Part shown: one piece after another, positions 25,001-53,451 of the stretch
Layout: each line of letters opens with the position of its first letter
How positions within the stretch are numbered: position 1 is the first letter of the stretch
IMG/VR virus record: IMGVR_UViG_3300042987_003044
Coordinates: 1 to 53,451 of that record
Reading direction: 5' to 3' (one strand)
DNA from: a virus
Taxonomy: Duplodnaviria > Caudoviricetes
Length of the DNA stretch: 53,451 nucleotides
Program-made: the position numbers and the translations under genes
The notes under the pieces: generated by a model
Told to the model about the DNA's origin: nothing
Database searches by the model: none
Seen by the model: only the letters and a program-made list of their open reading frames with translations

Positions 25001-28000
25001 GGTTGAGCACATCTTCCTCTAAAAGTTAGACGACGACCTTTAGAACTTTGCCCAAAAATAGTTTCACCTACCTCAAAAATTCCAGATGTCATTGAAATTT
25101 CAATTAGTTTTGGAACAACGAAGATAGAACTTGAATTGTTGATGAATGGATAATGTTGAGTTAAAGATCTTAAACCCCCTGCTCTGAATTCTACATTTCT
25201 TTCTCTAGCATAAGATTCTTCTTGAACAGTTGTTTTTAAAGATTCGACGTAATCATATGGTTTTGTTCTTCTATTTGCCAGTACAGTCCTAGATCTTGAT
25301 ATATAAACATGCCTAACCCACTCATCTCTTGAAGGATTTAATACTATAGACCCTTTATACTCTATATAATTGAATGGATTTACATTTTCGGTTCTTGAAG
25401 CAAATGGTTGCTGTATCCATGTTTTTTCTGTATAATTTAATGTAATTAAATCCCCAGTCTTTCTGACATTTTTATCAAGTAAAACTAAATCATCAGAATA
25501 ATCTGCAGTTTCTGGATTTATACTAGGATCTAATGCCAATTGAGGTTTAATTGACCATAAATGTGACATTGGTAAGAGATTTTTCTTTTCCGTATCAACA
25601 GAACACTGAACATCACTATTCGTTTTATCTAATAAATCATTATTTTTAAAATCATCTACAAAAAATCCAGATTTAAATCTAGATAAACCGTCAGCATCTT
25701 GTATTTGTAAAGTTTTTGTATCTAACTCCAGTAACGAAAGTGATGTAATTTCTTCTAGGTTTTTAATTCTAGTTTCAATACCACCAATATCCCTCATCGT
25801 ATATCTTCTATTGTCAATTAGTTTAATTTTAACATTATTAATCTGAGAGTCATATAAGTATGCAGGTAACTCAATAGAAGCAATATCCATTGCTTCTTCA
25901 ATATTAGTAGGTTCCTTCGGATTTAATGACGATACACCTTTTATCAGAGACAATTGCCCTAGTTTGTTCAAAACAACTTTATCAATTCTAGGCAAGTAAA
26001 AACTATATCCAATTGAGGAAGATTCTCCAGGAGTTATAACAACATTTGGAGTTATTGACGTTGAAGTTCCAAAAGTTTTATTTTCATAATAAAATGGTGA
26101 TGAAGTTGTAGATGTAAATTCAGAAACCCTTGGTCTAAAATCTATTATATCACTACAGCGTAATGTAGTTATTGAACTTCCATTTGAATAATTCACTGAT
26201 GGTATATCTTTGTTATACCTATCTGAACCATATGAATCGACTGTGTAAATGTCACCATTATCGTTGGATGGTATCTCATAAGCATCAAATATTACTAATA
26301 ATTGTTTATTTGGTGCTGAAAATTGAGATTTTCTAACTATTTTAGAATAATCATAATATTCATTTTTTTGACCTTTATCCAGATCATATCTATTTGTGAT
26401 ATTTAAATAATTGCCAAAAACTATACTTTGTATAGATAAACTAATTGCAGACTCTTGAAAATCTACTATTTCCCCAGCAATAAATTTCTTATTGTTTAAA
26501 TAAACAAATTCTATGCTATTTGAAAATCTAGTAACTATTTGTGCTATAGATCCTGATGTTTTACCAATTATTTTTTCACCAAGAACAGATTCTGTCGATA
26601 AGTTAATTCCAGATGGGAATACTAGAGAATCTAAAGTTGGTTGAGATGTATTTAAAGATTCATAAACACACAAAATATTTACAACATCTGGAACATTAAG
26701 AGAAATTTCAGAATCTTCTACACGTAGTCCATAATATTGATTATAAGTCACTCCATTTGTTATTGTAGAAACACCAGAAACTGACTTGTTTATAATTATT
26801 TTTTTGCTACGAGAAAGATTCTTAGATTTACTTCTTACTAAAGTTTTATTTAATGTAACATTAGCAGTTATATTTGATTGACTTGGTAATAATCCTGAAA
26901 AGGTTACCTGAGATCCAGCATTATTTACATCCACTTGATCAGAAGTCAGAGGCTCTATAGTTCCATTACTATATGAAATTGAATATCTTTCTTCATCAAA
27001 TGCTGTAAAATAAGTACTTGTGATTCCTGCGATTTCCGAGTTAGTTATTGTAAGATTTCCATTAGAATCTGTAGTTTTTCCTTTAACTTGATATGATATA
27101 ATTAAATTTGACCTACCTAAATCTACAGAAGAAATATTTGTATGTGCTAGTGGAGTATATAAAGAAGATTTTTCCTGATCCCTCAATATTGGATCAACAA
27201 TGCTGAAGTTTGTTAAAATATTTGATGGTATTGCACCATCAGATACTGACGTGACAGTAGTTCCTTGCCCTATTGTCAATGTAGATCCATCAGAAGATAC
27301 TGATACTACTCTATTGTAAGTAGGTACAGACTTGTCAGATCTTTGATATTTAATGATAGAATCACTTCTAATTCCAAGAAATGATTTTCCGGGACAAGTT
27401 GCAATTCCTGTTGATCCCAAATTAGTTATTGATATACTATCACCTATATTAAATCCTTGTTGTACTTTATTATAGAGAACTGTATCTGCTATAAAATCTG
27501 TTGGTATTAATCCAGATGATACCGATGTAGTATCTTGATATACTGATTTTATATCTTGACTATTATACTTTATTAATGATTTTATATTTCTTGAATATAA
27601 CTCTGCACCATTTATTAATATTTGCTCACCTTTAATAAATGATCCAGAAACTTGTGTCAATGTTATTGTTGAAGAACTTGCATCTGCAACAGTAAATCCA
27701 GAAGCTCCGGAGCTAACACCCTTAATATATGAAGATTTTGGACATTCGGATGAATTTAAACTTTCATTTAAAGTTAGAGAAGTATATATTTGAACATCAA
27801 ATAAATACAAATCCCAAATTGAGGCGTTATCTGAGTAAGCCGCATCAGTTAAACTATGGGAATATACTCTTGCCTGTCCGATATTGGTTCCTGTCCCAGA
27901 AGTTGTTGAAGATGATCTTCTTTGATTGTAAAAATATACAATATTATTTGAAGTGCTAATGCCAACTAAAGGAGTTCCATATACATTATTAACTTTAAGT

Positions 28001-29184
28001 AAATTTCCCATTTCAAATGGGACAAATGAAGACTCTGATGAGGTTTCTCTAGGTTTTTCAACATCTAAAATAGTGTTTTCGGAAATATCAATATCATATC
28101 CATATACATATGCCTTTATTGGAGAAATATTTACGCACAATAAATCATCTGAAGGTGTATTTCCGTTGACAGTTTTTTGATCTAGGTTATAAATTCCATT
28201 ATTAGAAATACCATCACTTAGTGAATTTTGAACACTAACATTTGTCGGTATAATTGTATAATTTCCAGACTCTTCATAAGTTCTCTTAGCAAAATAATCT
28301 CTTATTATAGAATATGATGATTTATCTTGAATCTTTTTGACTTCCCCATCAACTATTTTAATTATTTCAATAAAATTTTTATCATCAAAGTCATCTAATT
28401 CTTTTTTGGTTAATTCTGTAGAAATTCTAAACCTATCTGCACCTGGAGCAGAAAAATTAGAGAATCCGGATGCATTGTCATTTAAACTTTTATCTTCATT
28501 CGATGTTACGATTTCTTCAAAGACAGTAAATCCTACTCTATAAGATGTTTTGTTTGAATAAGGATCTAATATAATCTCAGATTTTGAAACATTTACAAAA
28601 GAACCTCTTATAAAATAAACACCATCATTAACTCCAACTGAAGATCCAACAGCGGTTGAATTAATACTAATAGTAGTTGCTACAGTATTATTTTGATTAA
28701 TAGTAGTGTTTCCATAAACAATATTTTCATTTACAATTAAATTTTCACCATCAACAAATTGTGAATTATTAAAATCAGAACCGGAACTTAAATACTTTAC
28801 ATATAAAGTAACATATTCAACTCCATTTTCCGGTGGAATATTATAATTAACAACCGTTGCTGTTGTGCCAGATACTGTTCCTGATATTTTTTTATTTACT
28901 AATTCATTGACATATAAAGAAACTGGAATTCCCAAATGTTCCGAATTTATTTTTACCGAATAATATTCAGAATCATAAGTAATTGATCCTGGAATTACAA
29001 GAGACCCATCTTTAAATATAGAACTTCCAAATGACTCTATTTGATTTTGTAATATAGATTGTAAAGTCGTTAATTCTCTAGATTGTACAGGATATCCTGG
29101 TTTAAATAAAACTTTATAAAAATTTTTATTTACATCAAAGTCATCAAAATATGGACTTACATTTAGATTAGTTTTTTGGGCCAT
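22087..29184 (-). CDS. Large virion structural protein, VrlC/DUF4815-like
   Basis: NLNVSPYFDDFD...VLFKPGYPVQSRELT, APGADR, RTYEESGNY, DPLAQSF, GSLFKSQNG and C-terminal KDLRTIALA motifs. Confidence 0.88.
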   Translation of the reverse strand: MAQKTNLNVSPYFDDFDVNKNFYKVLFKPGYPVQSRELTTLQSILQNQIESFGSSIFKDGSLVIPGSITYDSEYYSVKINSEHLGIPVSLYVNELVNKKISGTVSGTTATVVNYNIPPENGVEYVTLYVKYLSSGSDFNNSQFVDGENLIVNENIVYGNTTINQNNTVATTISINSTAVGSSVGVNDGVYFIRGSFVNVSKSEIILDPYSNKTSYRVGFTVFEEIVTSNEDKSLNDNASGFSNFSAPGADRFRISTELTKKELDDFDDKNFIEIIKIVDGEVKKIQDKSSYSIIRDYFAKRTYEESGNYTIIPTNVSVQNSLSDGISNNGIYNLDQKTVNGNTPSDDLLCVNISPIKAYVYGYDIDISENTILDVEKPRETSSESSFVPFEMGNLLKVNNVYGTPLVGISTSNNIVYFYNQRRSSSTTSGTGTNIGQARVYSHSLTDAAYSDNASIWDLYLFDVQIYTSLTLNESLNSSECPKSSYIKGVSSGASGFTVADASSSTITLTQVSGSFIKGEQILINGAELYSRNIKSLIKYNSQDIKSVYQDTTSVSSGLIPTDFIADTVLYNKVQQGFNIGDSISITNLGSTGIATCPGKSFLGIRSDSIIKYQRSDKSVPTYNRVVSVSSDGSTLTIGQGTTVTSVSDGAIPSNILTNFSIVDPILRDQEKSSLYTPLAHTNISSVDLGRSNLIISYQVKGKTTDSNGNLTITNSEIAGITSTYFTAFDEERYSISYSNGTIEPLTSDQVDVNNAGSQVTFSGLLPSQSNITANVTLNKTLVRSKSKNLSRSKKIIINKSVSGVSTITNGVTYNQYYGLRVEDSEISLNVPDVVNILCVYESLNTSQPTLDSLVFPSGINLSTESVLGEKIIGKTSGSIAQIVTRFSNSIEFVYLNNKKFIAGEIVDFQESAISLSIQSIVFGNYLNITNRYDLDKGQKNEYYDYSKIVRKSQFSAPNKQLLVIFDAYEIPSNDNGDIYTVDSYGSDRYNKDIPSVNYSNGSSITTLRCSDIIDFRPRVSEFTSTTSSPFYYENKTFGTSTSITPNVVITPGESSSIGYSFYLPRIDKVVLNKLGQLSLIKGVSSLNPKEPTNIEEAMDIASIELPAYLYDSQINNVKIKLIDNRRYTMRDIGGIETRIKNLEEITSLSLLELDTKTLQIQDADGLSRFKSGFFVDDFKNNDLLDKTNSDVQCSVDTEKKNLLPMSHLWSIKPQLALDPSINPETADYSDDLVLLDKNVRKTGDLITLNYTEKTWIQQPFASRTENVNPFNYIEYKGSIVLNPSRDEWVRHVYISRSRTVLANRRTKPYDYVESLKTTVQEESYARERNVEFRAGGLRSLTQHYPFINNSSSIFVVPKLIEISMTSGIFEVGETIFGQSSKGRRLTFRGRCAQPNHKFGPYNNPTKKYTSSPYNTSQILSSTYSATSTILNIDTSSLSEESLGEFGGFLSVGQQIIGETSGATAVVTNIRLVSDINGQISGCFYIPDFTNRDVPISFKIPTGDSTLKITASQNNDEFSSPQSDAIGIYNASGVVVTTEESIVQVRPRPPQPRRRRRGKDPLAQSFTVDETGAFLTSLDLFFAKKDSTENVYVEIRTVELGTPTADLVQDYARAILDPSDIEVSDDASIATNVKFPSPIYLQPNTEYAIVVLSPTTNNNELWIAKTGEVTVNTQDFPDVESTIVTKQYIGGSLFKSQNGTIWTASQYEDMKFKLYKANFTSKIGDVIYYNPNLSTNDLNLPRLVENAIKTFPRKLRVGIVTTTNMSSILNIGRIVGAGGSSVHGSIENVGSNVTALSISNPGIGYSNGTFTNVPLYSITGNGSGLTGTVTVSGGVVSSVSVGSSGNGYTVGDIVGVTTGSVSKGKGAQISINAINGIDTLYLSDVQGESFYETPTTTLYYKSGNSWVGIANTYTTSSTTINNLYSGNVIEITQFNHGMHSDVNKVKISGVFPDTIPTTLNSDFNVTSTSIEVVNASSFSTFEGISTSTGYILVDDEVIEYDNITGNTLNIKTRGVNNTPITAHDGGAQVFKYELNGVSLLRINTDHTMPNDPLLKSLRDFDTYHLQFSRETRSSGSSQLSFKTGSIIGGDNVSATQNIQFDSVIPQFSLITPGQSTKISAQIRTTTSTSSGGSEESFLDSGFESVELNKINYLSSTRMICSRVNEDEYLSNLPSKKSFTTKITLSSNDPNLSPVLDTQNGFVILNRNRINNPISDYAKDNRVNLVSGDPHTSIYISNKISLKQPATSLKVILAAYRPDECDFRVLYQIFRNGSGETVPSFELFPGYDNLKDTDGDGFGDFILDSTLNSGRSDAFVSSNRVNEFSEYQYSIDNLDPFTSYAIKIVMSSTNESKIPKFKDLRTIALA

Positions 29185-30750: not shown

Positions 30751-30758
30751 TATTTATA
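30751..30758 (-). promoter_or_regulatory. Late promoter TATAAATA for gp8
   Basis: Exact consensus overlapping the gp7 stop. Confidence 0.8.
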
Positions 30759-33700
30759 TCGGTATATTTGGTCTTAATGCTCCAAGACCTTCAAATCCAT
30801 ATCCTCTTCTTTGCATTACTGGGAATGATGATAAACCTGAATTTATGGTAAAGGAACTAACTGCAATGCCTATGGGTGATAGTCTTTCAAAATTTGACAA
30901 TCTCCCCCAAGAAAATCTCCCTAACGGATTTGTTATTGATCCAAATGTTGAAATTCCAATAACTGAAGAATCTGACTTCACATTGCATATAATTTCCGCA
31001 TTCGCAGCTAATTTTGTTATGGAGTGGATATAGTAAATATTATTTAAAAATTGAGTTCCAACACCAATAACTGCAGAATTATCAGAATCTATAGAAGTAA
31101 CTCCAGATCCAACCTTAGTATCATATATGTAAATTGGGTATCCAACTTCCAGACCATCAAAAGTCAATGCATCTGTGCTCCTTAAGTTAAATTTGAGAGC
31201 TAGTGGATTTGAAAGTGTTCCTGTTGTTGTTGTAATTCCAGTAACAATCCCAGAAAATCCTTCTACATTTGCAACATTTCTAATATTTTCATATCTAACT
31301 GCAGGAGATTCAACAATAACTTGAACTGGAATAGAAGGATCATATCCAAATCCTGGACTAGTTATAGTAATCGGAGTAGATACTGATCCATTAGAAATGT
31401 TTGCTACTGCGGATGCAATTGATCCAATACCACTCATTATATTTGGTGGTGCTGATATTTTTACATCAATTGATCCGCCAGTATATCCGGATCCAGGATT
31501 AATGATGCTTATCGATTGAATTGTTCCACCAACAGAAACAACTGCAGATAATCCTGCCGAAACCGGATTACTATTTTCGACAATTAAAACATCAAAATCT
31601 ATAATGTCTATTGGAGATTCATTTTCTTCATATAGGAAAAATCTAGAATCATCAACAAATACTTCACTATCAGAAACATTTACATTTTTAATAATTTTTG
31701 CAGTTGGATATACTCTAGACTCTAGAGAATTTCTTGACTTATATACAGGTTGTCCATTGATTATATAATCAGATTTTTGTTTTGTCCAACTTAAAATTTT
31801 ATAATTTGGTTCATCAGTTTCTATTCCTGGACCAAAATATATATTTGTTTCAAATTCATCTGAAGTATTAATACCAACAATTGTTCTTGGATTTTGAGAT
31901 ACTGATCCATATATATTATCATTTTTTATAGCCTGAACTGTATCACCAACCTTGAGAGTTTCCACAACATTGACAATATTACTGTCAACACCTCTAGTTC
32001 CTCTGTAGAAGAATATCGCTATATTATTTTCAGGTTTTGGTGGTTCCGTAAATGTAAATGATGATCCTCCAGAAAATTGGTAAGAAACTCCCGGATCTTG
32101 AATTACACCATCAATGAATATTAATAGAACAGAATTTAAATCTAATATTGGATTATTCGTTTCAAAACTTAATGTATTTCCTTGATAAATCAAAGGAAAT
32201 CTAACTCTCTCACCATCTTGTAAAAACTTTATTGTATCAATATAATCAAGTTCACCTAATTCTATTGCAGAAAAAGAATCTGTAAATATTTCTGTAACTG
32301 TAAGTGTAAAATCACTTATTGGATTTGCTAATCTCGCGTCAGTTACTAGACCAACTGGTTTAAAAACATCACCAATTTCAAAACCATATCCAGGTCTAGT
32401 GATTTTGAATGAATTTACTGAAAAATAAGTAGATCCAATTCCCGTGCTACCATAAGAGGGTCCTACCTCAACACTCATAAGCAATCCAGTTCCAGTTTCG
32501 GTAGTTATGCCTGTAGAAAGTCTTGAAACACCGATAACTGGTAAATTTTCATATGAGGGTTCTGGAAGTATTAATTGTGGATTAGTGTATCCACTTCCAC
32601 CATTACTAATATTAAACGATAAAGTACCACCTAATCCAACAATTGCAGAAATTACTGCGCCAGTTCCGGTTGAATCTGTTATTGATACAATTCCAATATT
32701 TTTATTATATCCAGATCCCCAATTACCAGTAGTTCCAATACCAATAGAGGTTATTGTGCCACCAGATACTGATGCAGTCACAGAAGCTCCTACAAGCGGT
32801 GCAAATCCTATTCCATCGGTCGATCCTAGAGAAACAATAATACCACCTCTTGGTAATTGATTTTGATTTACATCAGTTTCTGAGACTATAATTTGCCCAT
32901 TTGAAGAAGTTATTCCTGTAAATACAATTTTTGTTTTTCCAGATTCTTCAACAGTTTCATAATTATTTCCTGAATTATTTTCAGTAGATGGAGTTTGGAA
33001 AATATCATTAATAAAAACTAAATTACTACCAGGTTGAACTCCAGTTGTATTAATTCCCTGAACAGTTAAGTTCATAGAAACACCAATACCTGTAAATTGA
33101 TCAGAAATATCGTCATAAATCACGTTAGTAGTATAATCTTGCCTTAAAAATACCCTTCCATTAAAAGATGATGCTGGTCTTGGTAAATTAGTTTCATTTT
33201 CATCAGATAAAGATCTTCCTTTTGGTGCATTAGTAAAATAAATTTTACTTCCTTTAATATTATATGCCCCCCTATAAACCCTAACATTCGTAGAATCAGT
33301 GTGAGATGTGGCAGAAGATCCTATAAAACCTCTTTCAACTTCCACTAATTTAAATGTTCCTATTCCAGTTATAGGACCAAATCTACTTTGACCCAACCCA
33401 ACATTTACAACATCAACATACTCATCATCAATTTTTAGAACATCAAAAAAGAAAACTGATGATATTCCACTTAAAGAAAATATAGTTGTATCTATTCCAA
33501 CTTGACCACCATTATATTGCAATGTATGTGATATTGGCGTATATTTAATTGGATTTTGAACTACCCCATCCAAGGATAAAACGGTTTTTTCAAGTTTTTT
33601 ATACATTTCAAATTTGTGAGCATTTCCAGATCCTAGTGAAGTGAAGGTTACACCTATCCCAGACCCAGTAGTTGAATAGTCATATCTTGTAGATATTCTA

Positions 33701-36700
33701 AATTTATCTTCATCAATCTTGATGGCATAAACTTCTTTTGGAAGAATAGTTGTTAAAACTCCAACAGAATTTAAAGTAGATCCTATTCCAAGTGGTAATG
33801 GAGAAATAGTGTTGAATGTAGATCCCTCAGTATAAATTAATCTTTCTCCAGTACTAAAGAAATGATTTTTTATTGTAAATATACCAGTTGATGGATCTAA
33901 AATTGAAGAATTTGTCGGATTAAAAGTTTTTTCAAATATGGAGAAATTTTTATGTTCTAAAGGAAAACTATTTTTGGAATATCTATCACCATTAATAGCA
34001 TTGAAGAATGCTATAGAAACAGACTCTCTTATTTTCCCATATTCTAGTTGATTTGGAGTATTTAATGAGTCATATTCTGAATAAAATGCCTGATTAAAAG
34101 ATTGCAATAAATATTGGCTAGAATTATATTCAGAATCTGGATAGAACACTAATTCAACATTAGTTCCATTCAATCTACCACCAAAAGTTCCTATACCAGA
34201 TGAATTGTTTATTGACAAGAAGGGGTAATTTTTTGTATATACATCTTCACTATTATGAATAGTTAATACTTGATGAAGAGCACTTGTGTTTCCAATAGAT
34301 ACTTTAACTATAGTTTTAAATGCACTTATACTTGATAAATCTTCAGATACTATTGTTGTTGTTCCGGTAGAAACTGAGAAATTAGAATCATACTTTACAC
34401 TTTGTGTAGAGTCTTCTGGTTGATCATCAGATAAAAATATGTAAGTTCCTATTCCAGATGCTGTAGATCCAAAACCTACAACCTTAGATCTTATCAATAG
34501 TTCACTATCTGTACTATTTTCATAAGTTAAAGTTAAAATTTGAGAATCTATATATGAAGAAAATGTTCCGATACTATTTGATGATAATGATGTATTGTCT
34601 AGAGTATCAAAATAATATTCAGAAATATAAGAATCTGTACCATCAGTAGTTAAATAGATGTCTACAAAATTAGATTCACCACTAGGTTTTTGTATAATTT
34701 GAGTACTAACATAAACTGAAGATAACTGGTTAGTATCAAAACTAATAATTGATACAGTTGATCCTATTCCACTAGTAGCAGCAATTCCACTTAAATTCAC
34801 CAATCCTATAGAATAAGTTCCAATACCAGACTCAACAGATGAAAAATTACTCTTTAAAATTTTCACATCAAGGTCTGTATCGAAAGGATCATCTGGTATG
34901 ATCTCCAATGCATTTTTATTATTAAAATCTATAAATCCATTTATATCTGATATTTTATTTTCTGTACTAAAAATATTCGCTTTTTCTAAAATATAGATAT
35001 TGTCCAGATCATTTAATGTAGATATTTCAATTAGTTGAATATCTGAAGTTTTTGGATCTTTGATTTGGATAAGAAAATCAGAATAATTATCCGTATAAGT
35101 AATAATCTTTTGTGTTTCTGCTGTATTTGCTACCCTATTATCGACATTTGAAAATAAATCTTGAATATTATCAATCTTTAATACGACGTTTGAAATGCAA
35201 TCAATATAATCTGTTAATTTTTTATTTTTTAATCTTAAAAATTTGGAATAATTTGATACAACATTGGTGTCTAATACTAAGTCAAAATTATTAATAGTAT
35301 CAACTCGATTTTCATCGATATAATCAATTGTAACACTATCATTTGTTAAAAATTCTTTTACACCTACTGTAGAAGATGAAGAAACTTGTGTATCTGCAAA
35401 ATTCTTAAGACCTATGGGATGTAGTAATTGATTGACAGGACTAGATATTTCATCATACTGTTTAGAACTCTTAATTGAATAAGATAAATTTTGATAATAA
35501 TCACTATCTATTGTCACTTGATAATAATCATTTAGTTTTCCAACATCAGATTGCCACCCAAAATCTTTTTCAGTATATGAATCAATATTTAATTGATTAT
35601 TTTGTTTTAAAATAGATTTAATCTCTCCAATTACCCCTGAAATTTTTCCTTTAATTATATTACCAATTTCAAGATTATCGTATTTTTCATCAACATAAGC
35701 ATTTTTGTCTCCAGATGAAGTAATTTGCAAATCCTTCTCAACAAAAAATTCACCTTCCTTCACTAGTACTTTTTCACCTATGGTAAATTTGGAATTATTT
35801 TGGGTAACTTTAAATTTAGGATAATTTGAATAATCTACAATTAAACTATTAATAGATGGATTAATGCTAGGAGTGCCCCCATCCGAAGAAAAATTAGAAA
35901 TTTTATATTCTATGACTGCTGGATTGGTGTTGAAATAATTATAAACCTCAAAAAATACATAACCATAATCAGATGAATTAAATCCATCACCAGATTCACT
36001 AGTATTTTGAATGCCCTCAACAAATATTAAATCACCTGTAGAAAAAATTGGTGTTGGAAATCCTAAGACTGGAGTTTCTATGATACATGTAACAATTCCA
36101 CTTGATGAGTTATAACTTACCGAAGTGATAGGAATTCCATTAGTATTATTGATAGAAAATACCTCACTTTCAATCGGACTTAATCCATATGGAGTTTCCA
36201 ATATTTCAACACTACCTATAGATGAATTATTCAATATTGGTTTAAGTTGACCATAAGGATAAACTTCACGAGTTTCCGAATTTAAAATAACTAGCGAAGG
36301 TTCGGATATATAATTTTTTCCTCCATCTAAAACTTCTATACTTTCAACTTTATCGGTGTTGATTAATTCTAATATCGTTGGAAAATATGATTGGGGATTT
36401 AGAGTGTTATCAACAGAATAATCATACCCCTGATTAAAAACTTTAATGTCTGCAACTTTACCTATAGAAGACGATGATAATCTAATTGAAGCACCCTTTC
36501 CATTTTCTGATAGTATTTTTGAAAAAGTCGGTAGTTTTTTATAGTTAAAACCATTTGAAATTATATTTATTTTATTCACTCCACCATTTTCTGTTTTTGA
36601 AGTTGTTGAATACTCAAGAATATCACACTCATCTGCACTATATCCCAAAATAATTGGATTTTCCAACAGAGTAAATGAAAATGTAGTAGATCCTATTCCA

Positions 36701-39700
36701 GTTACCGAATATCTTCCATTATATTTGGAATCAACAAAAGATAATTTTGAATAATTCACAACATCTACATCACTGAAAACAGAGACACCATCTTTTTCTA
36801 AAGAATAAAATAATTCATCCGGAATTTGTGTTGAAAAATCTAATGTAAAACTAGCATCGGTGCTTAATCCAACCGTTCCAATACCACTGGTAATAAATTC
36901 TTCGGAAGATTCAGTTGATTTAAATTCTTTATTAAAATTTTTATCATAATAAAGTTTAAATTCATATCCAAATAAAGATGTATCACTCAAATCAAATTTT
37001 AAAGAATTATTTTTTGTTATGTTAATCTGTGGATTAATGTTATATACAAATTGACTAGATCCTCCAGAACTAGCAATACTGACTAAGTTTGGTGGATTAA
37101 GATTTAAATCATATAAAGTTTCTGCAAAAGAAAATTTATTTGAATTTATTCTATAAATGTAGTATGATCCTGTCTGCAGACCAACCGGAATAGGTCCTAG
37201 TGCATTTTTATAATAAACTTTATCTCCGGTATTAAAATTATGATTTATTACTGTTATTTCATTAGTTGCAGTGTTTATACCAGACGAGCTAAATCCTATT
37301 GGATTTATTAAAATTTTCTGTATTGAGTCGTCATATATCACCTTTACTGAAGAGGATGTTCCAATTCCCACAGTAGTTTTTGGTTGAACATTTAAATCTA
37401 TGATATCATTTTCTTCCAAATTATGTTCAGTTTTTAAAGTTATTGATGCAGTTATTCTTTCAACTTTTCCAGTAACCTGAGTGTAATTACTTTCAAAGTA
37501 GTATTCATATTCATCAGAACCATTATTAACAAAAAATAAACCATCAGAACTTGTAGTTAATTCTACATTAGTACATAGTCCAATATAATTATTTGATTTT
37601 TTAATTATATAAACTCTTTCAGAATCTCCATTTGGAAGAGAAAATGATGCTCCATCTGAAGTTTTTTTAGCAAGTAATGATGAAGATAGTGGTGGTTTTG
37701 AAAGAGTTACTTCCTGACCAGTTTTAAATGGGTGATTTGGTAAATATATTGATTGTGTGGGAACGGAAACATCTTTATCAACCTCACCGACTGATGTTGG
37801 AACGATCCACGCTAATCCAGAAGTTGTTCCAATACCAACAGAATATTGTGGATTAAAATAAACTTTATCATTTATTTTTGATTCAAAATAATCAGTTTTT
37901 ACTTGTACTTTAAATTTATTCTTTACGAAAGATACTGGAGTAGATAAAGTATGTGCGATCCCTGTAAGAGTTCTTTTAACCCTTAAAATTTTATTAGTAT
38001 CAAAAATATTTAAGACCGTTAAATTTTCATTATCAATTTGTATCACATCATCGATAAAAAGAGTCGATGGAATGGATGACAAGTATATATCGGTTACAAT
38101 TCCTGTTCCCGATGGAATTGGTGCAAGTAGAATTGAACTATCACTTTCTACTTTACAAATTTTAGAACCACTTAGATTATTTACGAATGTGGATAACCCA
38201 GATATTGTTACTATATCGTTATCAAATAGTTGATGGGATGTTGAAATGTATGCTGAAATTTCCCTTGTATTTGTCCAAGTAAATATGAAATCATCGTAGG
38301 TATCAACTTCAGTATCTATTCTATCTACTTCTTTTCCATAAATTTGAGATACCTTGGCACTAAATCCCCCTCCATTCGTATTACTATTATCAATTTCTAC
38401 AAAATCACCAACCTTATAATCACTCCCTCTAGTCTCAACTAAACATTTATCTATTGATCCGGATGAAACAGACTCTATTAATATTTTCTGATCTACAATT
38501 TCGTTAGATTCTACAATAAAATCATTATCTGCATATTTTTCATTTGATTTATATGGGAATGTATTTCTAATTAATTTTGAATTTTCAAAATCAAAATCTT
38601 GATCCAAATTAAAATTATCAATAATTACTGGAGATCTAAAATATTCTCCAATAAAATATGGATAGATTCCACTATTGTTTATTGTATTTACAGTTGCAAA
38701 ATACGCATAAGTCCCATTTGGAAACTCTGGAGTTTTACACCACCTGCCATTATAAATGTCCAAATCTCCAGAATTATTAAAAATATAATCTTCTACAAAA
38801 GTTCCATAAGGAAATTCTGTGGTTGATGGTCTATTCTGAATATTATTTGTATTGAGTATATACCCAGATTCAATTACTTTTAGATCTGACGTTAAATCTT
38901 CAGGATCAGAATGCCCATATGGTCCATATATTGGATTTCCATCATACGCCCACCCTATAATTGGAGAATGAAAATCACCATTATCATTAAATTCTTGAGA
39001 GAATAATGATGTATCGTATGATATACAACCATATTGAAGTTTATTTTTAGAATCCTGTAATACAAAATTTCCAAATCTAGATCTACTATCAATTGATAAA
39101 TCCCTTATTTTAATATCAAGTAATGCATTATATCCAGCTGGGATAACAGAAATAGAAGTTTTTGGTAATGTATAATTGACTCCGGAAGATAACACAATAA
39201 CATCAACAATTTTGTTATCTACTATTACTGGTCTCAATTTACAACCAACACCGTCACCAACAACTAATAAATCTGGAGTACTATAATATTCAGTGCCCGA
39301 TGATTCAACTTCTACTCGGACAATAGATCCATTAATTATAACGGGGCGTAATAAAGCATCTTTTCCGGTTTTTATAAAAATAAAAGGTTTTTTCTCAAAA
39401 TTTATCAAAGATGATCCATATCCTACACCAGATTCATATAAATAAGCATCAACAATTTTTCCTCTAACTACTGGAGTGGCTACAATATTCCCAGTAAAAG
39501 TACTTCCATAAGATACTAATATATTAACTTTAATTTCTGGATATTTAAAAACATTAAACCCAGATCCAGATGATTTAAAAGTGGCAAATTTTTTACGATT
39601 ATAATCAGTGGTATCTTTATTTGTTCCAGCGTTTGCTAGTCTAAAAGTGTCATTATCAATTTTTAAAATATAATATTGATTAGTTGTAGAAATACCTGAT

Positions 39701-42645
39701 ATTGGTGTTCCAGTTGAATAATATTCAATAAGGTCGCCATCATTAAAATTATGATTTGTAAATGTAACAGTACTATCAATAGTAGAAATTCCAGTTGGAC
39801 CAACAAATAATGTTCTATTTGTGTAATTAGAACCAGGATCTATTACTTTAACCGAATTTAATGTGTTGTTCGATACTGTTCCAAATTGATGTATCCCCGA
39901 AAGATATTGTGTAGTAAAACCTACTGTATTAATTCCGGAAACATAATCATTTAAAGTTTCATAAATTTGTATAGTTTTATTATTAACAATACTTGCATAA
40001 TATGAAGATCCATCTACTAAAGTTCTCTCCTGACTTAGATTGGATCCACCAAAAATACCTATGCCAATATCATTTCCTACAGAGTTATAAATTATTTTCT
40101 CACCACTTTTAAAGTTATGATCAGTAAGAAAGGTTATCGTTTCATTTGTAATATCAATTCCACCACCTTCAAATATCTGCCTACCATCAAAAGAAACACT
40201 TCTAAATCTTTTACTTAGAAATGGCTCTAATTTACATCCAGTTCCATTGCCACCTTCTACTGTAACAGATAAAACTTTTTCAATATCAAAATCCTGAGGA
40301 TCTATCAAAACTTCCTTAACAGATCCACTAACAACCGGCTGAATTAGTGCAGTTACACCAGAACCTATGGATGGTGAAGATACTTGAATTCTGGGTAAAT
40401 TAATAACATCATAATTTTCTCCACTATTTAAAATTAAAACATTCTTCAGAGGTCCATAATAAATTTTATTTAAATAAGAATAATTTAAAATTTCAACCCC
40501 ATTTTTTAACAAACCCAAAGATCTGTAATCTTTGGTTTTATTTCTTTCTCCAGAAGATAAATTTTTCTTTATTGGAAACTTTCTTAGTATTTTTTGAATT
40601 CCAATTTCTTTTGATCTTTGAATTCCTAATGTAAATGTATGAGGTCCATCAGATTCTAATAAAGGCAATAAATTTACAAAATTACTAGAACCAATGAAAG
40701 ATTTTGATTCATATAATCTTATTCTATCGGTACTAGTTACTTCAACATAATATAATTCTCCTGAAGTTAATCCGGGAATATCATTGGAAGAATTGTAAAT
40801 TATATAATCTCCAGTTTTGAACGGATTATTTACAATCTTAATTAATGAATAAAATCCAGTAGTTGCATTTTTTCCATCTAGATATTCTTCTGTAGCATAT
40901 GGTATTGTTTTTTCAATGATATTTTCACTGATTGTGTATGATGGCAATCCATTTGCTGAAACATATAAATATTCATCATTTTCATTATAAACATTTTGAA
41001 TATTTGATAATACATTATCATTACCATATTCAATAGGAATTGTAGTACTTATTGCTTTATCTATTTTTCTACGAATATCAAAATATGTCGATCCAGAATT
41101 TGGATTAAAATTGATGAGATTTGATACTTCTACAGTATTTGTGGAAGTATTAATATTAACAATAAATGGTACATTGAGAGTAGAATGCGCTACAGTTTGA
41201 GTTCCTCTATATAGAATCTCAACATTATCCCCAACCTTGAGACTTGATTTGTCTATAGGACTTTTTAATTTAAATGATGATCCTAATATTGATTCTATTT
41301 GGTATCTTGAACTAGTATTATAAATCCAAGAATTTGCAAAAATTTGCTTAAATGAATCATTATTATTTGGAATAATTTCACCAACACTTTTAACACCAAA
41401 GAAATCTCCAGAATTAAATCCATAAACTGGTTTATAAAAATCTAAACCAGAAATAACCCCGGTAATTCTCATCTCTACTTTTTTGTCGGTATCACCATTT
41501 TCATATCCATATGCAAATTGCTGCACTCTTATATCATCAGCACAATCAAGTTGTTCAACTATGTTAGTGCAATTTAAAAATTGATTTACTGTCTTATCTC
41601 CATAAGAGATTATATTATTTCCAGACACTAGTAATCCAGTTTTTGGAAATCCTATTGTACTATCGACAGAAATTATAGATGAACCTATAGATACATTTTC
41701 TAATACTCTTGTTTTGGGGTGAATAAAAAATTCACCGGTTATTAGATCTTGTGTGCCATATCCGACAAATAAAGATAATTCATAATATATTTTTCCATTT
41801 CTATTAATTATTTTTACTTCTGAAACTGATGCTTGATTTTCTGGTGAGTCAGATCTCTGTATTGTTTGTCCAACCAGATTGAGTGGATTACCAGATAAAG
41901 ACTCTACAACTATTACCTTTCTACGAATAAATTCTGAAGAAGATGGTTTTATTAAGAATTTTTCTAAATCAATGACTGAAATTTCTTCGCCATATAAAAC
42001 TCTAAAAAGAATCTTAAATGATTCTGGTGTCCCCTTTGCCTGATAAAATGATTTTGCTTCTTTTATAAAATTGCCAATATTAATCTCAGAAGAAAAATCT
42101 ATATTTTCTAATCCAGGAGTATAAGTATATTTTATTTTTTTATAAAACTCTTTTAAAAATAAAGAGCTTAAATTTATTACTTTTGTTTGACTACTATGAG
42201 ATTCTGCATTACTTTGAGAAAAAACTAGTTCTTCTGGATCATTAACTTTATGAAAATCAGTAATTCCACTGAAACCACGAATACATCCAGTAAAACTATT
42301 TGTTGTAATTCCAGTATATGTGATAATTTCATCGTCTATTTTTAATAGACCATATCTATTTGGATATCCTTTAGTACTATCAACGTATATAACTTCATCA
42401 TCTTCATCAATATTATAAGATAATGACGTATCTAATGAAACTATTTCTGGAATTAAGTTATCTAATCTAATATAATTGTCTAAATTATCACTAATGTCAA
42501 CTGGTCCGCCGGGAAATTCTAGCGATTTATAATATTGTTTAAAAAATTCTATAGAATTGGGATTTTGATCGACAATAAATTCTGGTAATTGATTGTCGAT
42601 GATATCTTGAATTTTTACTTTTCTATCAAAAATATTTCCTGACAT
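30754..42645 (-). CDS. gp7: Giant baseplate wedge initiator-like protein (3963 aa)
   Basis: Lies between gp6 and gp8; NQLPEFI, FYQAKGTPESFKILF, YYQNLSYSIKS and LLHPIG motifs typical of gp7-like proteins. Confidence 0.82.
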   Translation of the reverse strand: MSGNIFDRKVKIQDIIDNQLPEFIVDQNPNSIEFFKQYYKSLEFPGGPVDISDNLDNYIRLDNLIPEIVSLDTSLSYNIDEDDEVIYVDSTKGYPNRYGLLKIDDEIITYTGITTNSFTGCIRGFSGITDFHKVNDPEELVFSQSNAESHSSQTKVINLSSLFLKEFYKKIKYTYTPGLENIDFSSEINIGNFIKEAKSFYQAKGTPESFKILFRVLYGEEISVIDLEKFLIKPSSSEFIRRKVIVVESLSGNPLNLVGQTIQRSDSPENQASVSEVKIINRNGKIYYELSLFVGYGTQDLITGEFFIHPKTRVLENVSIGSSIISVDSTIGFPKTGLLVSGNNIISYGDKTVNQFLNCTNIVEQLDCADDIRVQQFAYGYENGDTDKKVEMRITGVISGLDFYKPVYGFNSGDFFGVKSVGEIIPNNNDSFKQIFANSWIYNTSSRYQIESILGSSFKLKSPIDKSSLKVGDNVEILYRGTQTVAHSTLNVPFIVNINTSTNTVEVSNLINFNPNSGSTYFDIRRKIDKAISTTIPIEYGNDNVLSNIQNVYNENDEYLYVSANGLPSYTISENIIEKTIPYATEEYLDGKNATTGFYSLIKIVNNPFKTGDYIIYNSSNDIPGLTSGELYYVEVTSTDRIRLYESKSFIGSSNFVNLLPLLESDGPHTFTLGIQRSKEIGIQKILRKFPIKKNLSSGERNKTKDYRSLGLLKNGVEILNYSYLNKIYYGPLKNVLILNSGENYDVINLPRIQVSSPSIGSGVTALIQPVVSGSVKEVLIDPQDFDIEKVLSVTVEGGNGTGCKLEPFLSKRFRSVSFDGRQIFEGGGIDITNETITFLTDHNFKSGEKIIYNSVGNDIGIGIFGGSNLSQERTLVDGSSYYASIVNNKTIQIYETLNDYVSGINTVGFTTQYLSGIHQFGTVSNNTLNSVKVIDPGSNYTNRTLFVGPTGISTIDSTVTFTNHNFNDGDLIEYYSTGTPISGISTTNQYYILKIDNDTFRLANAGTNKDTTDYNRKKFATFKSSGSGFNVFKYPEIKVNILVSYGSTFTGNIVATPVVRGKIVDAYLYESGVGYGSSLINFEKKPFIFIKTGKDALLRPVIINGSIVRVEVESSGTEYYSTPDLLVVGDGVGCKLRPVIVDNKIVDVIVLSSGVNYTLPKTSISVIPAGYNALLDIKIRDLSIDSRSRFGNFVLQDSKNKLQYGCISYDTSLFSQEFNDNGDFHSPIIGWAYDGNPIYGPYGHSDPEDLTSDLKVIESGYILNTNNIQNRPSTTEFPYGTFVEDYIFNNSGDLDIYNGRWCKTPEFPNGTYAYFATVNTINNSGIYPYFIGEYFRSPVIIDNFNLDQDFDFENSKLIRNTFPYKSNEKYADNDFIVESNEIVDQKILIESVSSGSIDKCLVETRGSDYKVGDFVEIDNSNTNGGGFSAKVSQIYGKEVDRIDTEVDTYDDFIFTWTNTREISAYISTSHQLFDNDIVTISGLSTFVNNLSGSKICKVESDSSILLAPIPSGTGIVTDIYLSSIPSTLFIDDVIQIDNENLTVLNIFDTNKILRVKRTLTGIAHTLSTPVSFVKNKFKVQVKTDYFESKINDKVYFNPQYSVGIGTTSGLAWIVPTSVGEVDKDVSVPTQSIYLPNHPFKTGQEVTLSKPPLSSSLLAKKTSDGASFSLPNGDSERVYIIKKSNNYIGLCTNVELTTSSDGLFFVNNGSDEYEYYFESNYTQVTGKVERITASITLKTEHNLEENDIIDLNVQPKTTVGIGTSSSVKVIYDDSIQKILINPIGFSSSGINTATNEITVINHNFNTGDKVYYKNALGPIPVGLQTGSYYIYRINSNKFSFAETLYDLNLNPPNLVSIASSGGSSQFVYNINPQINITKNNSLKFDLSDTSLFGYEFKLYYDKNFNKEFKSTESSEEFITSGIGTVGLSTDASFTLDFSTQIPDELFYSLEKDGVSVFSDVDVVNYSKLSFVDSKYNGRYSVTGIGSTTFSFTLLENPIILGYSADECDILEYSTTSKTENGGVNKINIISNGFNYKKLPTFSKILSENGKGASIRLSSSSIGKVADIKVFNQGYDYSVDNTLNPQSYFPTILELINTDKVESIEVLDGGKNYISEPSLVILNSETREVYPYGQLKPILNNSSIGSVEILETPYGLSPIESEVFSINNTNGIPITSVSYNSSSGIVTCIIETPVLGFPTPIFSTGDLIFVEGIQNTSESGDGFNSSDYGYVFFEVYNYFNTNPAVIEYKISNFSSDGGTPSINPSINSLIVDYSNYPKFKVTQNNSKFTIGEKVLVKEGEFFVEKDLQITSSGDKNAYVDEKYDNLEIGNIIKGKISGVIGEIKSILKQNNQLNIDSYTEKDFGWQSDVGKLNDYYQVTIDSDYYQNLSYSIKSSKQYDEISSPVNQLLHPIGLKNFADTQVSSSSTVGVKEFLTNDSVTIDYIDENRVDTINNFDLVLDTNVVSNYSKFLRLKNKKLTDYIDCISNVVLKIDNIQDLFSNVDNRVANTAETQKIITYTDNYSDFLIQIKDPKTSDIQLIEISTLNDLDNIYILEKANIFSTENKISDINGFIDFNNKNALEIIPDDPFDTDLDVKILKSNFSSVESGIGTYSIGLVNLSGIAATSGIGSTVSIISFDTNQLSSVYVSTQIIQKPSGESNFVDIYLTTDGTDSYISEYYFDTLDNTSLSSNSIGTFSSYIDSQILTLTYENSTDSELLIRSKVVGFGSTASGIGTYIFLSDDQPEDSTQSVKYDSNFSVSTGTTTIVSEDLSSISAFKTIVKVSIGNTSALHQVLTIHNSEDVYTKNYPFLSINNSSGIGTFGGRLNGTNVELVFYPDSEYNSSQYLLQSFNQAFYSEYDSLNTPNQLEYGKIRESVSIAFFNAINGDRYSKNSFPLEHKNFSIFEKTFNPTNSSILDPSTGIFTIKNHFFSTGERLIYTEGSTFNTISPLPLGIGSTLNSVGVLTTILPKEVYAIKIDEDKFRISTRYDYSTTGSGIGVTFTSLGSGNAHKFEMYKKLEKTVLSLDGVVQNPIKYTPISHTLQYNGGQVGIDTTIFSLSGISSVFFFDVLKIDDEYVDVVNVGLGQSRFGPITGIGTFKLVEVERGFIGSSATSHTDSTNVRVYRGAYNIKGSKIYFTNAPKGRSLSDENETNLPRPASSFNGRVFLRQDYTTNVIYDDISDQFTGIGVSMNLTVQGINTTGVQPGSNLVFINDIFQTPSTENNSGNNYETVEESGKTKIVFTGITSSNGQIIVSETDVNQNQLPRGGIIVSLGSTDGIGFAPLVGASVTASVSGGTITSIGIGTTGNWGSGYNKNIGIVSITDSTGTGAVISAIVGLGGTLSFNISNGGSGYTNPQLILPEPSYENLPVIGVSRLSTGITTETGTGLLMSVEVGPSYGSTGIGSTYFSVNSFKITRPGYGFEIGDVFKPVGLVTDARLANPISDFTLTVTEIFTDSFSAIELGELDYIDTIKFLQDGERVRFPLIYQGNTLSFETNNPILDLNSVLLIFIDGVIQDPGVSYQFSGGSSFTFTEPPKPENNIAIFFYRGTRGVDSNIVNVVETLKVGDTVQAIKNDNIYGSVSQNPRTIVGINTSDEFETNIYFGPGIETDEPNYKILSWTKQKSDYIINGQPVYKSRNSLESRVYPTAKIIKNVNVSDSEVFVDDSRFFLYEENESPIDIIDFDVLIVENSNPVSAGLSAVVSVGGTIQSISIINPGSGYTGGSIDVKISAPPNIMSGIGSIASAVANISNGSVSTPITITSPGFGYDPSIPVQVIVESPAVRYENIRNVANVEGFSGIVTGITTTTGTLSNPLALKFNLRSTDALTFDGLEVGYPIYIYDTKVGSGVTSIDSDNSAVIGVGTQFLNNIYYIHSITKLAANAEIICNVKSDSSVIGISTFGSITNPLGRFSWGRLSNFERLSPIGIAVSSFTINSGLSSFPVMQRRGYGFEGLGALRPNIPI

Positions 42646-52095: not shown

Positions 52096-52118
52096 GTGTG
52101 TCTCTCAGGTACGAATGT

Positions 52119-52177
52119 AATGTAGAACGGATCGGGGGGAATTTCAACCCCCCTTGTGCCAGTTTTCAGACTGTCAC
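52119..52177 (-). promoter_or_regulatory. Early promoter cassette 8
   Basis: GTGACA-N10-TGGCAC-8 nt-TTGAAA-17 nt-TACATT. Confidence 0.9.
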
Positions 52178-52342
52178 TTCCATCAGTTCAGATTCAATCT
52201 CATGTCCGAACCTACGGATGAACTCAGAATCAGATTGCCTCAGAACATTTGCCAGTTCGATTGCATCTTCACGGGATACTTGCGACACCTGAAAAGTGTA
52301 GTGTCCAAATGCAGGATCTTGTTCAGTGTGAAAGCAGCACAT
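52166..52342 (-). CDS. Early hypothetical protein (58 aa, MCCFHTEQDP...)
   Basis: Manual translation; GAGG SD-like sequence upstream. Confidence 0.7.
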   Translation of the reverse strand: MCCFHTEQDPAFGHYTFQVSQVSREDAIELANVLRQSDSEFIRRFGHEIESELMEVTV

Positions 52343-52368
52343 TGGAGTACCTCAGGAACAAATGTAAA

Positions 52369-52463
52369 TTGAGAGGGCACGGTAATTACTTTTACCTCAA
52401 CCGCATGTCCCCGCTTCTAGTTGTCGGGGTGGTTGGGAACCGCCTTTTGTTCTTCCCTCTCAA
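52369..52463 (-). ncRNA. Candidate structured RNA in an early 5' leader
   Basis: 9-bp closing stem TTGAGAGGG/CCCTCTCAA enclosing CAACC/GGTTG, CCCCG/CGGGG and GGTAA/TTACC helices; begins at the predicted TSS. Confidence 0.5.
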
Positions 52464-52470
52464 CAAATGT

Positions 52471-52529
52471 AGTATGGCAGGGATCTCATGAGAACACAAG
52501 ACCCCTTGTGCCAGTTTTCAGACCGTCCG
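52471..52529 (-). promoter_or_regulatory. Early promoter cassette 9
   Basis: CGGACG-N10-TGGCAC-8 nt-TTGTGT-17 nt-CATACT (degenerate distal half-site). Confidence 0.85.
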
Positions 52530-52829: not shown

Positions 52830-52886
52830 GATAGTGAAAAGAGCGAAAGAACGGTGTGGGAGATTGCGTTTCTCAACCACGAATGT

Positions 52887-52949: not shown

Positions 52950-53015
52950 CTTTTTCAGGTTTTACGCTTTTTCAGTATTTCTGAAAATTCAGAATTCCTG
53001 AAAATTTCAGTCAGG
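52950..53015. repeat. Cluster of TTTTCAG/CTGAAAA short direct and inverted repeats
   Basis: tttttcagg, tttttcagt, ttctgaaaattcagaa, ctgaaaatttcag. Confidence 0.6.
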
Positions 53016-53025
53016 AACAAGGGGC

Positions 53026-53054
53026 TTGACAAGATCTCAAATATTCGCTAGAAT
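53026..53054 (+). promoter_or_regulatory. Divergent sigma70-type promoter with no downstream gene
   Basis: TTGACA-17 nt-TAGAAT. Confidence 0.7.
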
Positions 53055-53323
53055 CGCTTTGCTAAGGATGAAGATGGGATTATAAGCTTTAAGACACAAA
53101 AATATGACTCCTAAGTGACAAGATTTAAACATAAGATCTTGTCAGGAATCGTCCTGTTTTTAAATTATTCTTACTCGTCACATGTATATTATGTCCTATT
53201 TTATTTGCCAGAGATAGGATTGAACTCTCGCTCATCATATTGTTTTTATTTATAACAAAAGCACATTATAATGGTGTGGGAAGGGGTGAGTGGGGTGAAG
53301 CACATATTCTTGCACATAAACAT

Positions 53324-53356
53324 AAAAAAAAAGGCAGGGACACCACTCCCTGCCTT
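53324..53356 (-). terminator. Intrinsic terminator
   Basis: Minus strand AAGGCAGGGA-GTGGTG-TCCCTGCCTT followed by a T run. Confidence 0.88.
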
Positions 53357-53451
53357 ATGTTACCCACTCTACCTTATATGATATGATTATCTCGACGCGC
53401 AGGGTAACTTTACTGAATGCTGAGGCAAACCCGTTCCTCATATGATTATGT

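Follow-up and report, generated by a model that had tools for sequence, protein, structure and literature searches.

A 95-nt element inserted into one early cassette of an uncultured T4-like cyanophage is a real, selected and portable non-coding module, absent from the catalogues searched. We would give about an even chance to the more specific reading in which uncultured T4-like cyanophages carry it as a selected non-coding RNA module, one that would form the 5'-terminal domain of an early message and be moved by recombination. The element lies in the window, by which we mean the whole stretch of 53,451 nt that was analysed.

The window, whose genes lie on the minus strand, is identified as part of a T4-like cyanomyovirus by PHROG matches to tail sheath, portal, major head protein, large terminase, helicase and baseplate wedge, and by a further match of a 3963-aa ORF to a virion or baseplate protein; the completeness of the record is rated at ~25%. 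The structural region holds two giant ORFs of 3963 and 2365 aa (30754-42645 and 22087-29184), whose PHROGs are virion/baseplate or of unknown function. An N4-like phage with hairpin promoters, suggested by the 3963-aa ORF, was ruled out by the PHROGs, which assign this ORF to a T4-like myovirus baseplate/virion protein.

Between 48.9 and 52.96 kb, small early minus-strand ORFs are separated by repeated cassettes of a stem-loop and a promoter (n = 5), in the order stop codon, AACTGGCACAA, G-run/C-run stem-loop, CCATACTACRTT, a short leader beginning CCTGAG(G/A) and ATG. The box GAAAACTGGCACAAGGGG has three matches in the window versus 0.02 expected by chance. A PeSL has been described as a stem-loop joined to an early promoter of host type; such units recur among ORFans and drive the exchange of modules (PMC2839356, Arbiol et al. 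2010, in the portion of that text available). Judged by its layout, the cassette architecture of the window is of this kind, since in all five units a G-run/C-run stem-loop lies beside or overlaps an early promoter in the gap between small genes. As in the available portions of PMC2839356 and PMC4122927 (Comeau et al. 2014), the unit sits between the stop of a small gene and the next ribosome site, and modules are gained or lost via recombination between repeats, here a 352-bp module that is absent from a relative. The phages in those portions are coliphage, Vibrio and Aeromonas phages, with no cyanophage named, and the cargo described there consists of ORFs, whereas here a conserved 95-nt non-coding module stands between promoter and leader. 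For the cyanophage S-PM2, few PeSLs were found, according to the part of PMC4503421 available.

The distance between the end of the CCATACTACRTT box and the ATG, taken as leader length, is ~22, 23, ~30, 52 and 123 nt in the five cassettes, so that the first-pass annotation of this DNA, which had put most leaders at 0-25 nt and that of the element at about 120, was roughly right. A consensus promoter scan flags only the neighbouring cassette (TTGAAA-17-TACATT, 9/12), while the promoter of the element's own cassette reads TTCTCA-17-TACATT (~8/12 by eye). The neighbouring cassette (52108-52198, minus strand; box, G6/C6 stem-loop and promoter) matches intergenic DNA of cultured marine cyanophages, with 97% identity over 35 nt to S-CAM22 and further matches to ACG-2014f, S-SSM7 and Bellamy. 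Therefore, this cassette type is common to marine isolates and to the uncultured phage studied here.

The features of the element and its cassette, with P1 denoting the putative helix that closes the element and P2' a putative alternative helix within it, are the following:

52506..52523, minus strand: end of the upstream gene and conserved box AACTGGCACAA; stop TGA at 52520-52518, within a 22-nt cassette repeat that recurs at 52150-52171
52480..52505, minus strand: terminator-like cassette stem-loop GGGGTCT...AGATCCC, with a -35-like hexamer in or next to the loop; the identical 26-mer is found at 18 IMG/VR loci
52466..52477, minus strand: conserved promoter box CCATACTACATT, with candidate -10 hexamers CATACT or TACATT
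52462..52471, minus strand: upstream copy of the direct repeat TACATTTGTT, from the repeat listing
52367..52461, minus strand: inserted 95-nt element, delimited by empty cassettes and 12 variants
52369-52463, minus strand: putative RNA domain closed by P1, covariance-model match of 113.3 bits
52455..52463, minus strand: putative P1 5' strand UUGAGAGGG, with one G-C to A-U double change and three G-U cells
52439..52443, minus strand: putative P2' 5' strand GCGGU, with its partner at 52379-52383
52398..52435, minus strand: invariant hairpin core of 38 nt, predicted as CAACC/GGUUG plus CCCCG/CGGGG with an 11-nt loop
52379..52383, minus strand: putative P2' 3' strand ACCGU, overlapping the UUACC strand of the GGUAA/UUACC arm
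52369..52377, minus strand: putative P1 3' strand CCCUCUCAA, part of the 9-bp inverted repeat
52357..52366, minus strand: downstream copy of the direct repeat TACATTTGTT, which begins the standard leader, from the repeat listing and the empty cassettes
52343..52356, minus strand: standard short leader CCTGAGGTACTCCA, with GAGG as ribosome-binding site; CCTGAG(A/G) is kept in empty cassettes
52166..52342, minus strand: 58-aa ORFan driven by the element's cassette, with no PHROG match
52150..52501, minus strand: 352-bp module (stem-loop, promoter, element, ORF) with the 22-nt repeat at its borders, absent from a close relative

The two copies of TACATTTGTT (52471-52462 and 52366-52357, minus strand) are perfect and spaced by exactly 95 nt (52461-52367), in agreement with the earlier description of a 95-nt insert flanked by a 10-nt direct repeat. 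The ends of the insert form a perfect 9-bp inverted repeat, TTGAGAGGG/CCCTCTCAA, at 52455-52463 and 52369-52377. GCGGTT occurs twice in the element, as had been noted for the RNA form GCGGUU, and the downstream ORF starts at 52342. From the position of the promoter box, transcription would start at 52464 to 52459, which coincides with the beginning of the closing helix or lies just within it. The element would then be the opening ~95 nt of an early message made from a host-type PeSL promoter.

The cassette's 26-nt stem-loop is present unchanged at 18 IMG/VR loci, and 16 of these lack the element, with the promoter box running directly into the leader. The empty cassettes read ...TACATTTGTT followed by CCTGAG...ATG, three of them exactly ...CCATACTACATTTGTTCCTGAG; compared with this form, the window has 95 additional bases and a second TACATTTGTT. 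Since the empty cassettes run from TACATTTGTT straight into the leader, the element is an insertion with a duplicated leader start, and the second repeat copy does begin a normal-looking leader, as the first-pass annotation had stated. Its description of the element as cassette cargo at the predicted transcript start also fits these loci: the sequence is non-coding, conserved and extra in a single early cassette. The element would have entered a standard cassette between promoter and short leader, with the leader start TACATTTGTT being duplicated. Near the element, a contig of the single RNA run, X20, covers only 52462-52522, which takes in the promoter but not the element, and then enters another gene.

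Some other candidates at this locus were rejected. A tiny upstream ORF within the element (ATG-CGG-TTG-AGG-TAA) has no ATG in variants L033, L038 and L039; an antisense ORF at 52249-52491 has its frame broken by indels among the variants; and a second promoter in the downstream repeat depends on TACATT, which is present in the window only and reads CACATT in most variants.

Anchored pattern scans recovered the element in 15 further uncultured contigs, 10 from IMG/VR and five from metagenomes, giving 12 distinct variants. Identity between the window and the 15 contigs is 86-92%, and the mean column identity over the 12 variants is 91%; recurrence at this level indicates that the element is more than a chance feature. 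The neighbouring homologous genes are 70-84% identical to those of the window, below the value for the element. Variation is unevenly placed: the ends of the element vary, while the hairpin core is constant, with changes in alignment columns 29-70 at a few loop positions only and all 10 core pairs invariant. Indels of 1 and 4 nt, along with some small deletions, break every reading frame, which excludes coding on either strand. Together, the invariant core, the variable ends and the frame-breaking indels indicate a selected non-coding module, and neither a MITE nor a riboswitch tied to a single gene.

A covariance model built from the element finds one copy in each of 11 records, among them the window; in a twelfth record, of 100 kb, it finds none. 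In searches of the GenBank phages by megablast and blastn the element had no match, an exact 24-mer of it gave no match in 185,579 GTDB genomes, and the covariance model found no credible copy in the whole genomes of S-CREM1, B3, S-CRM01, S-PM2 and S-CAM22. The sole match in these five cultured cyanophages, of 20.7 bits and antisense within psbA of S-CREM1, is taken as chance. The 58-aa ORF behind the element likewise had no tblastn match in the GenBank phages, and the sole relative found is an 87%-identical copy in the operon of another contig, without the element's cassette, which makes it uninformative as an empty site at this gene.

We considered whether the insert is a MITE-like DNA element without RNA function, bearing inverted repeats of 9 bp at its ends and flanked by a duplicated 10-bp target site. 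The window, with its perfect 10-nt flanking repeats and its 9-bp inverted repeat, would fit such an element, and empty sites do exist. However, each of the 11 records holds one copy, always after a promoter; the interior is invariant and the termini vary, the opposite of what is expected of a MITE, with variants L038 and L040 lacking the outer 3 bp; the 24-mer is absent from the GTDB genomes; and no transposase lies nearby. The flanking repeat, moreover, is degenerate in the other variants (~5-8 of 10 positions by eye) and equals the standard promoter/leader, and in six contigs the same flanks precede different genes, so that promoter and element move together. This explanation is therefore very unlikely. 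On its match to the empty cassettes, the 10-nt flanking repeat is a duplicated piece of the standard promoter/leader and not an arbitrary target sequence or a transposon footprint.

The surroundings of the 12 variants follow a common pattern, in which a promoter-like box lies upstream, the element is co-oriented with the next gene and its end lies 23-35 nt ahead of that gene. What follows it differs: at least nine different and unrelated small ORFs, one gene fragment and one tRNA-Lys are found downstream, 11 of the 12 variants standing ahead of protein genes and L039, in record G001, ahead of the tRNA-Lys. There, the element lies 35 nt before the tRNA-Lys, inside an array of 11 tRNAs and after a terminator and its own PeSL-like promoter. 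G001 is a 91-kb relative; small ORFs and an HNH endonuclease gene break up its tRNA array (L055, 1100-2300), and in the middle of the array a strong terminator is followed by a PeSL-like promoter. The upstream stem-loop also differs among variants, and L038, L040 and L044 have an altogether different upstream sequence. The neighbours of the L040-type copy (HNH endonuclease, DNA methyltransferase and unknowns) offer no functional clue.

In six contigs identical flanks, CCATACTATAAAAGTT before the element and CACACATTCGTTCCTGAG after it, are joined to four different downstream sequences, which indicates that promoter, element and leader start travel as a single block. The PeSL upstream and the repeated standard leader downstream would provide homology on both sides of the element; given such homology, homologous recombination can place promoter and element before any cassette gene, and a transposase is unnecessary. 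We infer that the element moves between cassettes through this ordinary recombination. In the metagenome contig L024, the standard leader behind the element runs directly into the final ~40 nt of a gene, present in full in L020 and L021; the joint, at GTTCCT, looks like a recombination or deletion scar.

Loss of the whole unit was seen in contigs from other runs. One contig of run X4 connects 52149 with 52502; 22 letters can be assigned to either side of the joint, and its shorter side is 111 letters long. Run X3 has a joint resembling it. These joints across the 22-nt repeat indicate a close relative without the whole 352-bp module, that is, without stem-loop, promoter, element and 58-aa ORF; as judged from the joints, this is gain and loss of the PeSL type. 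Among the run contigs mapped to the locus, none skips the element alone.

The element on its own has a predicted folding energy of -33.0 kcal/mol (z = -3.33), with none of 200 shuffles equally stable, and the seven variants tested were all more stable than their shuffles (z from -2.7 to -4.3). With flanks (129 nt), z is only -1.76 (10 of 200 shuffles). Since the antisense strand of the element folds too, with z = -3.80, folding energy is uninformative on the strand. There are 10 G-U cells, which favour the sense strand, versus seven C.A cells, plus two in the third arm, which would favour the antisense strand; the strand assignment rests on the promoter context and not on these wobble counts.

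The first-pass annotation had drawn the RNA as a three-way junction. The single-sequence fold of the 95-nt element agrees with this drawing, adding a weak fourth arm, GAAC/GUUC, and RNAalifold also returned the junction from the variants, with a covariation term of +0.68, which amounts to no support. The GGUAA/UUACC arm of the junction, however, did not hold: it is broken in four of the 12 variants, by two kinds of change and with no case of compensation. In the junction model, one pair has both sides changed, a number that 225 of 500 shuffles reach as well. The single-sequence folds of L004, L033, L038 and L039 are a rod, in which GCGGU (52443-52439) pairs with ACCGU (52383-52379) and the core helix is longer. 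Three pairs of the rod model have both sides changed, a result reached by 7 of 500 shuffles on alignment A2 and by 3 of 500 on A3, where A3 is a model-made alignment and the pair counts come from 12 sequences that are 91% alike. In P2', which joins element positions 21-25 to 81-85, 100% of cells are paired: GU in seven, AU in four and GC in one at one of its pairs, and CG in 11 and UA in one at the next. True double changes number two, both in L039 (G-C to A-U in P1 and C-G to U-A in P2'), and the third counted rod pair consists of two separate single changes that repair a C.A mismatch. The absence of homologues with compensatory changes had been named beforehand as what would speak against an RNA; homologues occur in 15 contigs, and a few paired positions change in step.

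Junction and rod lie a few kcal/mol apart in every variant, the junction being lower in seven and the rod in five, with the energy values of L038 distorted by a 2-nt misalignment in A2. Since the 3' strand of P2' overlaps UUACC, P2' and the GGUAA/UUACC arm are mutually exclusive, and the comparative data seem to lean slightly towards the rod with P2' over that arm. The picture that results is of an element whose ends would pair as P1 around the invariant G+C-rich hairpin, and whose A-rich flanks could be folded in two ways, either as the extra arms of the junction or as a rod with P2'. Variants L004, L033, L038 and L039 carry a U at element position 28, which gives the longer core helix, and all four have a change that breaks the GGUAA/UUACC arm, while none of the eight variants with a C at this position has such a change. 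This association may reflect either shared descent or a coordinated shift to the rod.

Two mutually exclusive folds of similar energy in all variants, together with conserved unpaired A-rich stretches, could also be the on and off states of a riboswitch or sensor for the gene behind the element, and the first-pass annotation had called the element riboswitch-like. The sequences downstream, however, are unrelated ORFans (at least nine genes) and a tRNA array, with no steady gene class; the domain ends, at P1, 23-35 nt ahead of the start codon; the GAGG site lies outside the fold and nothing pairs with it, leaving no expression platform at the ribosome-binding site; and no Rfam class matches. 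We regard a riboswitch as most improbable. Nothing speaks for an RNA antitoxin or for a decoy, both of which had been proposed as well.

Comparison with known RNAs agreed with the earlier impression that the element is uncatalogued. A covariance-model scan of 1952 nt against Rfam gave nothing within the element at E up to 10, and in a scan of 151 nt the best score was 10.7 bits against a gathering score of 34. ARAGORN found no tRNA genes in the window, and the element has no GTTCRA-type loop, in line with the remark that no tRNA could be recognised in it. In the published literature, no description of the element was found, the files of a catalogue of 8,495 candidate RNAs drawn from IMG/VR (PMC10690425, of which part of the text was available) lying outside this search; that catalogue may hold the element. 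The T4-like cyanophage S-CREM1 has catalogued RNAs, listed in the available part of PMC9964418 as CfrI, PhotoRC-II, wcaG, manA, glnA and abiF. Like the element, these are non-coding RNAs of T4-like cyanophages, some in 5' leaders; unlike them, the element is matched by no Rfam model, and S-CREM1 has no copy of it.

As to what the RNA would do, our tentative proposal, possible but far from assured, is a 5'-terminal leader domain acting in cis, which would protect the transcript it heads or boost it in some other way. Its action would be independent of the gene behind it. Such a leader fits the position of the element at the head of the transcript, its indifference to the downstream gene, the absence of a terminator of its own and its occurrence once per genome. 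Against it, a plain hairpin would suffice for protection of a 5' end, so that the invariant loops are left unexplained, and one copy per genome fits a trans-acting product at least equally well.

A small stable RNA gene acting in trans is such a product. Here, the early promoter would give a precursor from which the P1-closed domain is cut free, by RNase P at the tRNA and by RNase E/J elsewhere. The single copy per record, the irrelevance of the downstream gene and the invariant loop sequences all agree with it, as does the copy in G001, which cleavage of the adjacent tRNA-Lys by RNase P would free. T4 itself offers a parallel in rnaC and rnaD (the species 1 and 2 stable RNAs, annotated at 70908-71171 of NC_000866.4), which are small folded non-coding RNAs of unknown function that are co-transcribed with tRNAs, as element variant L039 would be in its tRNA array. 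However, rnaC has a tRNA-like T arm, which the element lacks, and 11 of the 12 element variants precede protein genes. The covariance model has no match in the T4 rnaC/rnaD region, where its best score of 7.7 bits falls on a tRNA and rnaC/rnaD give only a fragment of 3.9 bits. In addition, all 12 variants lack their own terminator, and none is directly followed by the stem-loop of the next cassette, unlike what is expected of a free-standing RNA cassette. We consider a trans-acting RNA doubtful, though worth keeping beside the leader domain.

The put RNAs of the lambdoid phage HK022 are promoter-proximal and folded, head early transcripts and act on the transcribing polymerase whatever gene follows. 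By analogy, the element might be an antiterminator that acts on the host RNA polymerase transcribing it, giving read-through of cassette terminators or of the structured tRNA array. The likeness to the HK022 RNAs is an analogy of position and gene independence only. It would agree with an element that is always promoter-proximal, co-oriented and terminator-free, that occurs once per record irrespective of the gene, and that heads the tRNA array in G001; in the window, a G6...C6 stem-loop (52146-52165) stands right after the first ORF of the element's unit. The element has, however, no similarity to the antiterminator RNAs catalogued in Rfam, the next cassette has its own promoter, so that read-through is unneeded there, and such RNAs are rare, all of which makes antitermination unlikely. 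If it were true, the single copy in a genome would determine the early unit from which reading continues far downstream, and this would be the first protein-independent element of its type in a T4-type phage or a cyanobacterial system.

In T4-like cyanophages, most early genes are ORFans, and little is known about how they are controlled. A conserved RNA that travels with its promoter and is indifferent to the gene it precedes would point to a layer of control, or to a small RNA, that current annotation misses. The element also indicates that PeSL shuffling, described for coliphages and for Vibrio phages, extends to cyanophages of fresh water and estuaries, and that its cargo can be non-coding. 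The covariance model provides a means to collect further members and to test the fold.

At the other side of the array, the first cassette (52830-52881, minus strand) has the 52-nt leader, which begins with GTGGTTGAGAAACGCAATCTCCCAC, a small GAGA...TCTC hairpin reminiscent of the two ends of the element; this may represent either another leader module or a remnant. Beyond the cassettes, the region 52960-53451 is A+T-rich and without convincing ORFs, and contains tandem repeats of the CTTTTTCAG type and, at ~53330-53356, a hairpin GGCAGGGA...TCCCTGCC with a T run.
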